From an uncultured virus (IMG/VR IMGVR_UViG_2687453376_000003) (lineage: Duplodnaviria > Heunggongvirae > Uroviricota > Caudoviricetes), in IMG/VR virus record IMGVR_UViG_2687453376_000003: DNA of 64,000 bases; one strand, 5' to 3'. Each line of letters starts with the position of its first letter. Position 1 is the stretch's first letter. Position numbers and translations under genes: made by a program. Positions 2,440-28,346 of the stretch are shown here, piece after piece. Below the pieces are notes generated by a model. It saw nothing but the letters and a program-made list of their open reading frames with translations, was not told the origin of the DNA and ran no database searches.

Positions 2440-3363
2440 TTATAGCCCCCCTACGTTATACCATGTTCCATTAATAAGCTTTTGTAGTGCTCGACGGTAG
2501 ACTTGATCGGGGAAGTCATCGCGGTTACCATTTTCAACCCCCGTAATTACATAAGGTGGCTGATCACTATATCCTATCCCACGCCATATTTGGGAACCCT
2601 CACGAGCTGAGAATCGAATATCTTGAACTGTTTTTGTGGCTGGCATTAGTTCAACCCAATCATGTTCAAAACCATAACCATCACGCGCAGAGCGGTAATA
2701 AATCCCTCTATTTCCATGATTCACTTTAAACTGTACAGCAGGGCAACTGCCCACCCCCATATTGAAATGAAGAATAAGGCACGATGCGCCAGGGAGAGTT
2801 GCTTCATAAACCCCGCTTGACGCATTCCAAGGCACTGCATCCTCGCTAGCTACTCTCCCCCCTGTTTGCCCCAGAGCAAATGCTGAAACATCATCCGCCG
2901 TTAAAGTAAGGTCTGATTCCAGTGAATAACGATTCACGGTTCTTGTTTTTGGGATGGCGTTAGCTGCCTGACTTATCGTTTCCAGTAAACCAAGGTATTG
3001 TAGAACCGCATCAGTGCTGGCTTTACCGATGATGTCCCGCCCGACCTGAGTGAGATCAGTCTGACCGGCGGTGTCTGTCCCGGTAAAGTACGGGAGTTTA
3101 TTAGCGCCTGTCGCTAGGCCTGCTAACGCCGTTAAGGTGGCGTCACTGGCTTGAAACTGTTTATTTAATGCTGTAAGAACCTGATTCGAATCATCAGGAG
3201 AGAGGGATATTCCAGCTGACTCTACGATGTTAGCCAACTCCTCTTGTATGGCATTAAAAGCAGCGGCACGCAGTCGTGTTGCAGCGATGCCACCAGCAAC
3301 ATTGCCATCCGTATACTGGCCACCTGGTGTTGCTGTAGATTCAACCTGCCCGATTCTGAGCAT
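2440..3363 (-). CDS. Tail fibre protein (short, 307 aa)
   Basis: FNAIQEELANIVE N-terminus, LTALAGLATGANKLPYFTG repeat, RALQKLINGTWYNV C-terminus; last structural position in the tail operon. Confidence 0.85.
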   Translation of the reverse strand: MLRIGQVESTATPGGQYTDGNVAGGIAATRLRAAAFNAIQEELANIVESAGISLSPDDSNQVLTALNKQFQASDATLTALAGLATGANKLPYFTGTDTAGQTDLTQVGRDIIGKASTDAVLQYLGLLETISQAANAIPKTRTVNRYSLESDLTLTADDVSAFALGQTGGRVASEDAVPWNASSGVYEATLPGASCLILHFNMGVGSCPAVQFKVNHGNRGIYYRSARDGYGFEHDWVELMPATKTVQDIRFSAREGSQIWRGIGYSDQPPYVITGVENGNRDDFPDQVYRRALQKLINGTWYNVGGL

Positions 3364-3419
3364 AAGTCATCCTCACTATATTAAGCGATAAAATACAAAA
3401 TATTCATTATTACAATCGG

Positions 3420-24905: not shown

Positions 24906-25226
24906 TCACTCCTGCCGCTGGATGCCGGCGCGCTTGTCGGCGATCTGTCGGATGAAATCGACGCCAAGGAACCCGATAAAGACGCTGCCCAGTGACGCCC
25001 AGTTAGGGTCTAGACCGAGCAGAGTTAAGCCATCCTTGATGTAAAACGCGAATATCGCGCACATCCCAGCTTCGATAATCCGCCGCCACCACGGCTGCCG
25101 GCCGGTATATGCACCACGCAGCAACGTCATTAAACTGGCCAGCGATGCGTACCCGATTTCGCTACGATGCGCGGCAAACCACGCAAGGAGGGCTGCCCAT
25201 ACATCCGGGGTCTTGTCCATTTTCAT
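24906..25226 (-). CDS. S: Lambda S-family holin with Met-Lys-Met dual start
   Basis: Hydrophobic segments, SVFIGFLGVD, charged C-terminus; ATG AAA ATG at 25226/25220. Confidence 0.88.
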   Translation of the reverse strand: MKMDKTPDVWAALLAWFAAHRSEIGYASLASLMTLLRGAYTGRQPWWRRIIEAGMCAIFAFYIKDGLTLLGLDPNWASLGSVFIGFLGVDFIRQIADKRAGIQRQE

Positions 25227-25707
25227 AGTCTCCACCTCCCGATCGCGGGTGGCGTGAATAAGGGGCTCCAGCGCGGCGGAAGCCGTACTAAGGCCGGATT
25301 GGGTTATGAACCCGTGTTCTGCGGGTCAAAGGGTAGCCCCCTGCGCTTATCTCAGGACGTCGATCTCATCGCGTGTCAGCTCTACGACGGGCTAAAAAGA
25401 AAAAGCCCCGCACATGGCAAGGATTAGGGATAACTGTGGTAGTTGCTCAAAAATTGTAAGCAAACAACCATTGGTAGTGGGTGTTAAACAAGATATAACT
25501 CCAGCGTACCTCTTCGAAACCTATCGTTCTACCTACTAGGTTTTAGTAAAAACCATACAGAATCTGATTGATAGTCTCGAAGTAGTCATTGTTAACATGA
25601 TATAATGTTTCAAGCAAAGCACGGGTCTCTATATATAGTATGCAAAGAAACAAACAACCACTATATATTGATATGGAGGAAAATTTACATTCCTACTGTG
25701 CAAAAAC

Positions 25708-25738
25708 CATTGACATAAGAAATGTCAATGACTAAATT
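25708..25738 (+). promoter_or_regulatory. Sigma70 promoter for the NYN module with an overlapping 9-bp inverted repeat
   Basis: TTGACA (25710-15), 17 nt, TAAATT (25733-38); CATTGACAT-aagaa-ATGTCAATG palindrome. Confidence 0.75.
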
Positions 25739-25744
25739 TACGGA

Positions 25745-25806
25745 ACCAGCTCAGCACTGTTCGTAGATAATGTTTAGGGTCTACTCAACGGTTCTGAGCT
25801 TTTTTT
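25745..25806 (+). ncRNA. Putative ~60-nt structured leader/small RNA ending in an intrinsic terminator
   Basis: Three stacked helices AGCTCAG/CTGAGCT, ACTGTT/AACGGT, GTAGA/TCTAC followed by T7, lying between the promoter and the NYN ATG. Confidence 0.55.
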
Positions 25807-25819
25807 GTGGGCATTTTTA

Positions 25820-26683
25820 ATGAAGAAAACAGCAGTCTTAATTGATGGTGGCTACTTCATCCGCCGTATCGACTACTTTCTACGCAAGCATTTCCCCGAT
25901 CATGAGCTTGACAGTCAACAACTTGTAAAAATAATTTGGCGTATTGTCAGATTTCATGTTGAAGTTCCACATGGTGGTCATCCTGAACGAGAGGCTTTAG
26001 AGCTTTATCGAATTTATTATTATGACTGTCCCCCTCTTGATAAGCAGATAAAGTACCCTCTTCCTACAGATGGGAATAAAACTCCTGCGACAAAAAATTT
26101 TAAAACACATGCGCCAAATATTTTGAGGACAAAACTCCACGAAGAATTAAGAAAAACGCGAAAAACAGCTCTTCGCATGGGTGTTCTTTCTAATGTAGGT
26201 AATTGGCAGATTAAAGAACACATATTAAAAAAGCTGCTGCGAAATGAAGTACAATGGTCTGATCTAACCAATGATGATTTTTACTACGAATATAAACAAA
26301 AGGCCGTAGATATCAAACTTGGCATGGATATAACTATTCTTGCTCATGAAAAATTAGTCGATGTTATAGTATTAATAGCAGGAGATGCCGATTTTGTTCC
26401 AGCAGCTAAACATGCTCGAATAAAAGGCGTCGATTTCATACTTGACCCTATGCATCAACAAGTTCCAGCCTCACTAGCCGAACATGTTGATGGAGTTCAA
26501 TCGAGCAATATCATTGTTGCTATAGCAGACATTTGCCGAATCGTCCCATCAGTAAAGCCTGATTGGTGGGATGAGCACATAGATAGACGGAAAGAAAGAA
26601 AGCTCAATGGCGGTAAAAGAATTAAACCCACTAAGCGACATATACAAAGGAGCGCTAGCACCTCTGAAAATCCCCAGGAGTAA
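25820..26683 (+). CDS. NYN (LabA/DUF88, PIN-fold) ribonuclease-domain protein
   Basis: AVLIDGGYF, RIYYYDC, KQKAVDIKLGMDI, LIAGDADFVPAAKHARIKG; AT-rich moron opposite the late operon. Confidence 0.92.
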   Translation: MKKTAVLIDGGYFIRRIDYFLRKHFPDHELDSQQLVKIIWRIVRFHVEVPHGGHPEREALELYRIYYYDCPPLDKQIKYPLPTDGNKTPATKNFKTHAPNILRTKLHEELRKTRKTALRMGVLSNVGNWQIKEHILKKLLRNEVQWSDLTNDDFYYEYKQKAVDIKLGMDITILAHEKLVDVIVLIAGDADFVPAAKHARIKGVDFILDPMHQQVPASLAEHVDGVQSSNIIVAIADICRIVPSVKPDWWDEHIDRRKERKLNGGKRIKPTKRHIQRSASTSENPQE

Positions 26684-26779
26684 TCCGGGATTACCGATTT
26701 GTCAAACCATCTATCAACTAGTTCATTGTTTGACATACTCCCCCTGCTCTAAAAGAGCCAGGTTTACGGCACTACGAAC

Positions 26780-26804
26780 AAAAAACCCGCTCAATGGCGG
26801 GTTT
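26780..26804. terminator. Terminator between Q and the NYN gene
   Basis: AAAAAACCCGC-tcaatg-GCGGGTTT. Confidence 0.7.
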
Positions 26805-26919
26805 AATCAGTGTTGCAACGGCTTTGGGTGAAATATCCCATCGTTAGAGCCATGGTTCCACAAAAAACGCCAACATACAATATCATTGTGCTATCTTTTG
26901 TGAAATAGAGCACATATTC

Positions 26920-27690
26920 CTATCTGGTGATTTTTTTCAGTTGCTGGTCAGCAATCGTTTCTTGGCGATCACACTCCACAACCATCCTCTCATACAGAGG
27001 CTTATACGAATTACGCCATGACGTCTCTGGCAGGCCATTGATGTAGTGGCTAATGGCTTGATAGGCCTTTGCCACAGGAAGTCGCCTATACCCACGACCA
27101 CCACACCGTTTACATGAACACTGAACCGGAACCCCCTGACGCTCGGTCTCTTTCCGGTCGATAGCGACGCGACGCCCACGGCAATCATTACATACGGCGG
27201 AAACGACGCCCTTACCACCACACTTTCGGCACATGCGGCCAACTCGCTCTGTGACAACCTTTGCGGACGTGGATCCGTACCCAGGGTGTTTAACGACATC
27301 CTCCTGCCGATAAATCATGCCATGGCCATTACAGCAATCGCATAACTCTTGTCCTGCAGCTGAGCGGCAATAATCGCGGTATGCAAACGCCGCCAGGGTG
27401 GCGATCACTTTCGCCTTTACAGTAGGGGGGAGTTTGCGAATAGCCGCCACTTTGTCACACTGCTTCATGCCAAACTGCGTCAATAGCTGCACGGCACGAT
27501 CGCGATCTGCAACACTAACGCCGACCTTCCCCATAAACGCGGAGAATCCAAACTCTGCGCTACTCTGGCACATCCCCATAGCGGCCATAACATCAGTCCC
27601 CGTAAGGCTATCTGTTGCTGTTGCTCTCGGCGCATCGCTCAAGCTCGGGGTTTTTGGGGCAAAAAATTTCACAGCATTCTCTAAATTCAT
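26920..27690 (-). CDS. Q: Late antiterminator Q (zinc-finger type)
   Basis: MNLENAVKFFAPK, LTGTDVMAAMGM, DYCRSAA and four CxxCxGxG-like repeats; upstream of the lysis cassette. Confidence 0.92.
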   Translation of the reverse strand: MNLENAVKFFAPKTPSLSDAPRATATDSLTGTDVMAAMGMCQSSAEFGFSAFMGKVGVSVADRDRAVQLLTQFGMKQCDKVAAIRKLPPTVKAKVIATLAAFAYRDYCRSAAGQELCDCCNGHGMIYRQEDVVKHPGYGSTSAKVVTERVGRMCRKCGGKGVVSAVCNDCRGRRVAIDRKETERQGVPVQCSCKRCGGRGYRRLPVAKAYQAISHYINGLPETSWRNSYKPLYERMVVECDRQETIADQQLKKITR

Positions 27691-27709
27691 GTTCAGCGCT
27701 CTCCACACA

Positions 27710-28108
27710 TTACGCCTTCACTATGGCACCTATCCCCAGCACCCGATTCAGGAATTGCACCAACAACACCAACTGGCTGCCGTTCCTCTGCTCCCAACCA
27801 CTCATATCACGATGTAGTTCGTCATGGCACCGCCGGCACAGCGGTATCACAAACAAATCATGCGTTTTAGTTCCTATGCCACCCAATCCCAACCCCGAAT
27901 TGATGATGTGATGTGGGTCATCGGCAGGGTTTCCGCACCCGCAGCACGGCTGTGTCTTCACCCAGCGCGTGTATTTACCACTCTCCCAGCGCTGAAACTT
28001 AGGCCGCAGCATAAACCCCGCCGCCGGTGCCTCATCTGCCGCCAGCTTGATCACCGGCTGTGGGATAACGGCCTCTACGGCCGCCCCCCTGTTTGATTTA
28101 AGGCTCAC
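27710..28108 (-). CDS. DUF968 family protein, C-terminal (HNH-like) part only
   Basis: FMLRPK..RW...KYTRWVKTQPC, DDPHHII, GTKTHDLFVIPLCRRCHDELH; ~132 aa from a GTG overlapping the upstream gene, apparently N-truncated. Confidence 0.75.
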   Translation of the reverse strand: MSLKSNRGAAVEAVIPQPVIKLAADEAPAAGFMLRPKFQRWESGKYTRWVKTQPCCGCGNPADDPHHIINSGLGLGGIGTKTHDLFVIPLCRRCHDELHRDMSGWEQRNGSQLVLLVQFLNRVLGIGAIVKA

Positions 28109-28346
28109 AGGACTCCCCCACGCAGTTGTCGTAATCCATACGCGGATCACCACTGACACGCTGAGCACAACGCACGTGGCGCGATAGTTCGTTACGGCGC
28201 ACCACAACCCTGCTTATCTGCGCCGCATCGGCAAATTCCGCCGCCCTGGTCAGCTCAGTAAGCGCTCGGCGATACAGCCCGCGAGATACCAACTCTTCTG
28301 CCCGCCGGCAATGTGCATCGGCCATAGCCGAATTCTCTCTGCTCAT
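28098..28346 (-). CDS. PerC-like regulator
   Basis: AEELVSRGLYRRA motif; ATG overlaps the P gene stop. Confidence 0.7.
   Translation of the reverse strand: MSRENSAMADAHCRRAEELVSRGLYRRALTELTRAAEFADAAQISRVVVRRNELSRHVRCAQRVSGDPRMDYDNCVGESCEP

Follow-up and report, generated by a model that had tools for sequence, protein, structure and literature searches.

Why should a lone nuclease-like gene in a prophage be preceded by its own promoter, a tight RNA hairpin and a transcription terminator? The question is raised by a 64,000-nt stretch of DNA from an uncultured virus of the Caudoviricetes (IMG/VR record IMGVR_UViG_2687453376_000003), referred to below as the window, in which such a unit lies directly upstream of a gene for a protein with a NYN domain (positions are counted from the first letter of the window). 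The whole arrangement of promoter, hairpin, U-run and open reading frame (ORF) recurs in many phyla, far beyond chance, and the pairing of hairpin and NYN gene from enterobacteria to Gram-positives suggests that the RNA keeps the enzyme under control or neutralises it.

A sequence-only reading of the window had described a near-consensus promoter overlapped by a 9-bp palindrome, a hairpin of about 55 nt with three helices and a T7 tail, and 13 nt between that tail and the ATG of the gene; each of these elements was recovered (Table 1). The helices are 7, 6 and 5–6 bp long, and the calculated folding energy of positions 25740–25822 is –26.2 kcal/mol (z = –3.78), a value equalled by none of 200 shuffled sequences. 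Judging by the promoter, transcription should start at about 25745–25747, 1–3 nt 5′ of the hairpin, and the predicted short RNA would extend from about 25746 to 25803–25806, that is, over roughly 58–62 nt. The ribosome-binding site that had been reported as missing is indeed not visible in the gap (25807–25819) between the T-run and the ATG at 25820. This holds for the window copy only, whereas many homologues carry a clear, AGGAG-like Shine–Dalgarno sequence between the U-run and the start codon.

Searches of Rfam with the window returned chance-level matches (Trp_leader, Histone3, sbrA and GlmZ), all far below the gathering scores, and the Trp_leader match was discarded as merely the tR′-like terminator at 26783–26804. 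Within 25690–25840 there was no match to RF03535 at E-values up to 10, nor to any other Rfam family. Tandem Repeats Finder revealed no tandem repeats with a score of at least 30 between 25400 and 26900. In public RNA sequencing data a single 4,864-nt contig (run X1) spans the locus and shows neither starts, ends nor levels of transcripts; three raw-read runs (X14–X16) yielded 0 reads, which means that those strains lack the prophage.

Homologous loci were gathered from viral contigs (20), from genomes (30, with Ewingella, Pseudomonas, Treponema, Actinomyces, Corynebacterium, Helicobacter, marine gammaproteobacteria and others as sources) and, by means of a protein profile, again from viral contigs (79 more). 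The profile showed that a relative is encoded in at least 404 of 576 pattern-matched viral-contig stretches. We refer to the copies in enterobacterial and Pseudomonas phages and islands, whose proteins are at least ~50% identical to that of the window, as class I. The blastn matches to phage records (Proteus phage Brookers, Escherichia phage ev099 and 48 Stx2a-converting phage records) start at 25744–25748, the first base of the hairpin, ~75 nt before the ATG. A four-way alignment contains compensatory replacements in the stem (GCUCAG/CUGAGC versus GCCCAG/CUGGGC, and GUAGA/UCUAC versus GCAGA/UCUGC). When 16 distinct class I sequences were aligned without gaps (alignment A3), 94.4% of cells were paired, and both sides had changed in 12 of 18 pairs; the covariation score was reached in 0 of 500 shuffles, and sliding the partner strand by 1–3 columns left 26–44% paired.

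The covariance model R1 recovered the RNA in all 58 class I loci (E-value < 1e-13), one copy each, immediately 5′ of the gene, so that the covarying hairpin for which the sequence-only reading had proposed a check in homologues is borne out. R1 scores are 67–85 bits on the strand of the gene and 20–31 bits on the opposite strand (78.7 and 25.3 bits, respectively, for the window RNA), and this asymmetry indicates an element that is read as a sense RNA and not a DNA palindrome. The RNA invariably forms a 5′ leader on the strand of the gene, 13–40 nt before the start codon, and in nearly all homologues a U-run follows the hairpin on its 3′ side. Five loop bases are conserved in class I (A26, U27, U30, U31 and A32 in alignment numbering). 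Inspection by eye placed an ordinary intrinsic terminator after the stop codon in 14 of 23 class I copies; the terminator in the leader is thus not the only one that the cassette possesses.

Promoters were scored as present with at least 8 of 12 consensus matches and a –10 box having A at position 2 and T at position 6. Of 25 distinct class I upstream regions, 24 have a TTGAC-type –35 box, a spacer of 16–18 nt and a –10 box, and in 22 the end of the –10 box lies 8–12 nt from the outer stem P1. The class I transcript would thus begin 1–4 nt before the stem, too near to it for an alternative anti-terminator fold to form. An internal promoter in the hairpin, which would let transcription circumvent the terminator, was considered and rejected on reading the alignment, since the –10-like words lack conservation and are wrongly spaced. 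The inverted repeat over the –35 box of the window has 9-bp arms, a length that 3 of 200 shuffled versions of the 75-nt upstream sequence attain. By reading, a TTGAC...GTCAA repeat covers the –35 box in ~13 of the 25 class I regions, and also in L120 and L124; as a universal operator it was dismissed, being present in only about half of class I and few class II copies, with most arms no longer than those of shuffled sequences.

More distant homologues, at 35–46% identity, come from Bacillota, Actinomycetes, Treponema, marine gammaproteobacteria and plasmids, and are preceded by a hairpin of the same size in the same place, which we call class II. It consists of an 8-bp outer stem, an internal loop and a short C-rich inner stem. 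The outer stem often begins with AGCCC and ends with GGGCU, like that of class I; the AU of the terminal loop is invariant, the 5′ strand reads [AU]GUA in 13 and GUUGA in 8 of 29 sequences, and the 3′ strand reads G[CA]CGA in 21 of them. In alignment A6, which was fitted to the model and leans towards its structure, 12 of 12 pairs changed on both sides, with a covariation of 0.551 against 0.249 for shuffled sequences. The model R2, seeded with the 29 sequences (which match by construction), detects the RNA in 37 of 42 non-class-I loci; its matches beyond the seeds are L053, L117, the Xanthomonas and Aeromonas plasmid copies and L198–L200. The idea of a single covariance model for both classes had to be abandoned: R2 matches no class I copy and R1 is weak on class II, giving at the right place 17.4 bits for L119, 15.8 for L118 and 14.3 for L032. 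The apparent kinship of the two classes thus draws on position, size, the AGCCC.../...GGGCU stem, the loop AU and protein homology, and not on a model score. The conserved unpaired bases of both classes argue for specific recognition rather than for a mere terminator. In an Alteromonadaceae metagenome-assembled genome (MAG), a class II RNA (L053:1623–1682) lies ~1.3 kb upstream of a NYN part that matches from residue 106 (3001–3384), and the separation suggests an insertion inside the gene.

Part of this RNA family has been catalogued. RF03535 (TEG147; Rfam type Cis-reg, gathering threshold 56.1 bits) represents a small RNA (sRNA) of Staphylococcus aureus, and it matches L023 with 54.0, L039 with 43.2 and L031 with 30.8 bits, in each case upstream of a distant NYN homologue; all RF03535 matches obtained here fall below the gathering score. 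TEG147 has the same layout of promoter, hairpin of ~50 nt and U-run, and its matches at L023, L031, L039 and L198–L200 precede NYN genes. It differs from the window RNA in its internal loop, which is replaced in the latter by a mostly paired P2 helix. The window RNA is a relative of TEG147 and not a member by score.

In the accessible part of PMC5826253, Teg147 is a ‘bona fide’ sRNA of HG003 (386294–386353, plus strand) with no experimental validation listed, and Table 1 of that paper presents it as a stand-alone RNA of roughly 60 nt; ‘bona fide’ is defined there by Liu et al. as having an own promoter and terminator, premature-termination products being excluded. The portions available of three further papers report expression of Teg147 from a genomic island (PMC3053349), the construction of the Rfam family during a course (PMC7779021) and, in a table row, a sarcin-ricin motif score in JAR3D for the internal loop (PMC13085918). 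Neither a NYN gene nor a function for Teg147 is mentioned in these parts of the four papers (PMC5826253, PMC3053349, PMC7779021, PMC13085918). The notion that the class II internal loop mimics the 23S sarcin-ricin loop was rejected, as the class I RNA is devoid of that loop and the window locus could not be explained in this way.

The association of RNA and gene was then approached from the RNA side. A degenerate pattern built on the class I core picked out 57 viral contigs, and 55 of these have a NYN homologue that begins 23–28 nt after the pattern. The NYN match is partial (residues 1–118 or 1–127) in four of the 55: L164 and L183 run to the contig end, and the ORFs of L167 and L194 have 129 amino acids. 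L162, one of the two exceptions, keeps the first NYN codons. At L186:1000–1250 a class I hairpin stands without promoter or NYN gene and is followed by a tRNA-like sequence, holin and lysozyme genes (late region); recombination probably left it behind, and it now serves as a terminator. When 150 genomes sampled from the phylum of G151 were searched with RF03535, 3 matches (37–42 bits) came up, all three followed by a NYN gene (L198–L200). Across 151 genomes of the order to which the window belongs, R1 produced a strong match only in the window's own genome, G000, and one match in the 64-kb window. Five other R1 places in the order (30–35 bits, 3 genomes) were set aside as short generic terminators, and no NYN gene was found at four of them (L135, L136, L137 and L139). 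The RNA is intact and the NYN gene broken in L023 (frameshift), L162, L167 and L194; a NYN gene without the RNA was not found among the class I loci. The association is reciprocal and essentially exclusive.

The product of the gene belongs to the NYN family PF01936 (E-value 2.6e-9; 38.1 bits, cut-off 24.2), and its residues 1–258 align with positions 1–245 of the 246 of phrog_5783 (E-value 7e-108), a family annotated as ‘unknown function’. The AlphaFold model (pLDDT 89.1) predicts a NYN/PIN-like fold, for which Foldseek gave as best structures in the Protein Data Bank (PDB) 2qip (E-value 1.4e-6) and the NYN domain of MARF1 (5yaa and 6fdl, E-value 3.3e-4), with a probability of 1.00. The fold is shared with these LabA-like NYN proteins, and the acidic residues are conserved in the family of the window protein; identity to 2qip and MARF1 is only 11–14%, and the window protein differs from them by an inserted subdomain of ~90 residues (approximately residues 70–160). 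No PDB sequence matched the family profile at E-values up to 0.01.

In an alignment of 23 sequences (A2), D9, D69, D164, D170, D189, E221 and D224 are invariant, and the motifs include LYRIYYYDC with D69, Q160-K161 and D189 in GDxDF. The description of a solo NYN gene with intact Asp motifs is thereby confirmed, and nuclease catalysis is predicted from the fold and the conserved acidic residues. The basic C-terminal tail to which attention had also been drawn is real in the window copy (approximately residues 258–287), but is not a family trait: the tail is acidic in Pseudomonas and actinomycete homologues and absent in many others. The NYN gene is single-copy in the 4.34-Mb, 102-contig genome.

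The reading that we tentatively put first, without regarding it as probable, is a type III-like module in which excess RNA inhibits or decoys the NYN nuclease and phage-induced loss of transcription releases it. Most transcripts would stop at the U-run and yield a stable short hairpin RNA, and the minority that read through would constitute the NYN mRNA. In the window copy this mRNA would be poorly translated because of its missing Shine–Dalgarno sequence, and early termination combined with poor translation would place the RNA in large excess over the protein. Through its loop and internal-loop bases the hairpin would act as a specific ligand of NYN and would keep it inactive, as a bound inhibitor or as a decoy substrate. 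An infecting phage that shuts off or redirects host transcription would leave the RNA unreplenished, and free NYN would then cut RNA and abort the infection. Since the cassette lies antisense in the Q-dependent late transcript, lytic growth of the prophage itself could, to judge by gene order, silence it. Termination efficiency, RNA–NYN binding, toxicity and defence are what we infer in this scheme.

In type III toxin–antitoxin systems a promoter, an antitoxin RNA made of tandem repeats of ~36 nt, an intrinsic terminator and an RNase gene follow each other in this order. The NYN module resembles ToxIN, CptIN and TenpIN in the order of its parts, in the absence of a protein antitoxin, in its carriers (phages, plasmids and islands) and, as proposed here, in the logic of an RNA in excess over a nuclease. 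It differs from them by a NYN/PIN-like fold in place of that of ToxN/AbiQ (Pfam finds only NYN, and the fold search leads to 2qip and MARF1) and by one hairpin of ~53 nt per locus. The label ‘type III-like’ given to the locus by the sequence-only reading is therefore apt for the gene order, while with a single hairpin and no repeat array the module is not a member of the ToxIN family, as neither the ToxN fold nor such an array is present. The constant presence and covariation of the hairpin, its conserved unpaired bases, the RNA-first searches that lead to the gene, the missing protein partner, the additional terminator after many copies, the copies in which the RNA is intact and the NYN gene broken, the rigid spacing of promoter and stem, the mobile residence at exclusion-gene sites and the judgement that Teg147 is a stand-alone RNA (accessible part of PMC5826253) were counted in favour of an antitoxin. 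No literature linking NYN proteins to such an RNA, a type III-like system, rexAB or defence was found in a search that left subscription journals outside; the earlier statement that no description of the arrangement for NYN proteins was known agrees with this, although part of the RNA family was already in Rfam as TEG147.

Several observations weigh against an antitoxin. A single hairpin without tandem repeats is unlike known type III antitoxins, and a hairpin of –20 to –26 kcal/mol at the very 5′ end should decay slowly, at odds with the lability expected of an antitoxin. Five of the 42 distant loci (L034, L042, L045, L050 and L051) are unmatched by R2 at E < 0.001, and several distant copies have no good U-run, which means that termination is not universal. 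On a Campylobacter jejuni conjugative plasmid (L201:1930–1975) a different hairpin, GAACCGC-N19-GCGGTTC, precedes the NYN gene; unmatched by R1 and R2, it may represent a third RNA class. PADLOC-DB 2.0 returned only partial weak matches for the protein (NYN model, E-value 1.6e-4, 19.2 bits; HEC-09, E-value 4.8e-4). Finally, a leader that acts only in cis fits all of the data equally well.

In such a cis-only leader the hairpin would be an attenuator and/or an autoregulatory site, the terminator would hold expression down, NYN would bind or cut the hairpin on its own read-through mRNA in a negative feedback, and the short RNA would be a by-product that does nothing in trans; we regard this as a serious, if doubtful, possibility. 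The constant place of the RNA in the 5′ leader speaks for it, as does the assignment of TEG147 to Cis-reg in Rfam, and the conserved loop bases point to NYN, the only constant protein, as their reader. There are also precedents. RNase E, RNase III and PNPase each regulate their own message through a 5′ hairpin, and Regnase-1, a eukaryotic NYN/PIN RNase, cuts a stem-loop in its own mRNA; the rne and rnc leaders and the Regnase-1 stem-loop share with the present locus a conserved stem-loop in the mRNA of the RNase itself. To our knowledge, however, known autoregulatory RNase leaders have no intrinsic terminator between hairpin and ORF, and neither a built-in terminator nor a separate small RNA belongs to the rne, rnc and Regnase-1 cases, unlike what is predicted here. 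The stem, moreover, starts at the transcription start and abuts the U-run in most copies, so no alternative fold is available for regulated read-through. A further point against a purely cis-acting element is that Liu et al., in the part of their paper available, dropped premature-termination products and retained Teg147 as stand-alone. Both the antitoxin and the cis-only leader would involve recognition of the RNA by NYN; they part over whether the RNA acts in trans.

We consider it improbable that the RNA has another role, be it as a cofactor or scaffold in a NYN ribonucleoprotein, as a leader that senses a small molecule or some factor of phage or host, or as an sRNA with other targets. Conserved loops and the sarcin-ricin-type internal loop of the TEG147 class (table row in PMC13085918) are typical binding platforms, and the inverted repeat that many copies carry at the –35 box may point to an additional regulator. 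However, the RNA is a single rod-like hairpin with neither junction nor pocket, starting 1–4 nt before the stem it offers no 5′ single-stranded seed, no second conserved gene accompanies it, and the different internal loops of classes I and II make one common small ligand unlikely. It is more improbable by far that the hairpin is a mere terminator or insulator at the edge of the cassette, with the upstream promoter match incidental. It does score as a terminator, and L186 keeps the hairpin alone before a tRNA gene in a late region. Against this stand the promoter and stem spacing kept in 22–24 of the 25 class I upstream regions, the conservation of the loop and the covariation of P2 and P3, far beyond the needs of a terminator, and the confinement of the motif to this one place in the window and, as a strong match, to G000 among the genomes of the order.

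The antitoxin reading has a broader form, which is possible and which we hold more hesitantly: a new multi-phylum class of RNA–protein toxin–antitoxin or abortive-infection systems, in which an sRNA of ~55 nt with a single hairpin, produced in excess thanks to its built-in terminator, neutralises a NYN-fold RNase, Teg147 is one such antitoxin, and the form of the window, that of enterobacteria and Pseudomonas, is an uncatalogued second RNA class co-evolved with the nuclease.

The window prophage is lambdoid, with its late genes on the minus strand, and the NYN cassette lies on the plus strand between Q and holin, antisense inside the late transcript (Table 1). Only positions 1–60111 of the window are on contig C23; 60112–64000 are N or off the contig.

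Table 1. Coordinates of the NYN cassette and of neighbouring features in the window (strand ‘.’, none assigned)
Feature	Position	Strand	Basis or detail
Holin gene	24906–25235	–	E-value 9.8e-23
Inverted repeat CATTGACAT-N5-ATGTCAATG over the –35 box, possible operator	25708–25730	.	Arms of 9 bp each, CATTGACAT 25708–25716 and ATGTCAATG 25722–25730; spacer 5 nt
Sigma-70-type promoter TTGACA-17-TAAATT	25710–25738	+	10/12 consensus matches; –35 box TTGACA 25710–25715, –10 box TAAATT 25733–25738, spacer 17 nt
Three-helix hairpin (class I NYN leader RNA), 53 nt	25748–25800	+	Fold, covariation; P1 25748–25754/25794–25800, P2 25756–25761/25787–25792, P3 25763–25767/25780–25784, loop 25768–25779
T7 run abutting P1, predicted intrinsic terminator with the hairpin	25800–25806	+	Also flagged by terminator scan
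NYN-domain protein, 287 amino acids, intact ORF	25820–26683	+	Pfam, PHROG, fold
Inverted repeat TGTCAAAC / GTTTGACA, 8 bp, just 3′ of the NYN stop codon	26700–26707 / 26728–26735	.	
G+C-rich hairpin followed by T6, likely tR′ of the late operon	26783–26804	.	T6 on minus strand
pR′-like promoter TTCACA-16-TATTGT with upstream TG	26904–26877	–	
Antiterminator Q gene	26920–27708	–	Pfam Antiterm, E-value 1.7e-38
DUF968/HNH-like gene	27710–28207	–	

The region directly downstream of Q (26777–26904, minus strand) resembles a late-operon leader, a pR′/tR′, 6S-RNA-type unit, and its hairpin at 26783–26804 may in addition serve as a terminator for plus-strand NYN transcripts. On the other side, a terminator-like hairpin followed by CTTTTTCTTT (25406–25422, minus strand) lies between cassette and holin, within the late unit; beyond the holin there are a probable endolysin and a spanin-like gene. 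The repeat at 26700–26735 and that over the promoter have a common half-site, TTGACA/TGTCAA, and together bracket the cassette. A repeat of this type after the stop codon was found in none of the other 22 class I loci compared and is confined to the window copy. A promoter-like TTGACA-16-AATAAT (11/12) inside the NYN ORF (25908–25935, plus strand) is probably due to chance in A+T-rich coding DNA.

Among 28 loci, Pfam scans of 100 flanking ORFs identified no recurring protein neighbour, in agreement with the earlier claim that there is no protein antitoxin. The neighbours differ widely, from Q, cI-type repressor and integrase to plasmid and housekeeping genes. The cassette is convergent with Q in the window, L006 and L016, and follows a cI/S24-type repressor gene directly, before N or integrase, in ev099, Brookers, L102, L103 and L125. 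The site after cI is that of rexAB in lambda. The likeness to rexAB is one of position in the repressor-linked loci, with no relation in sequence or fold, and the window cassette lies instead between Q and holin on the opposite strand. Copies near an integrase gene are found in L118 and L131, and lone copies among housekeeping genes in L025 (phosphorylase gene/glpD-like) and L041 (metG/mrp-like). In a Treponema MAG (L033:1431–2708) the cassette stands after a RelA/SpoT-TPR fusion protein gene, with a helix-turn-helix gene on the other side, in what looks like a defence island. A homologue is carried by 167 plasmid records, 134 of them from Campylobacter and 129 typed as conjugative; no near-identical match was found in E. 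coli complete genomes. The siting as an accessory gene that had been suggested for the window thus extends to temperate phages, plasmids and islands, and the cassette is a prophage ‘moron’, with its own promoter and terminator at a variable site between conserved phage genes.

These results give an orphan Rfam family, and with it the S. aureus sRNA TEG147, a genomic partner and hence a testable function, and they add a second RNA class, absent from Rfam, in enterobacterial and Pseudomonas phages, including 48 records of Stx2a-converting phages. They also provide a concrete hypothesis for phrog_5783, a family for which at least 404 viral-contig stretches and 167 plasmid records were counted here. 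Should the RNA be an antitoxin, the principle of RNA antitoxins would reach to PIN/NYN nucleases and to antitoxins made of a single hairpin. If it is an autoregulatory leader, the cassette would be a compact, portable device that limits the expression of a nuclease on mobile elements.

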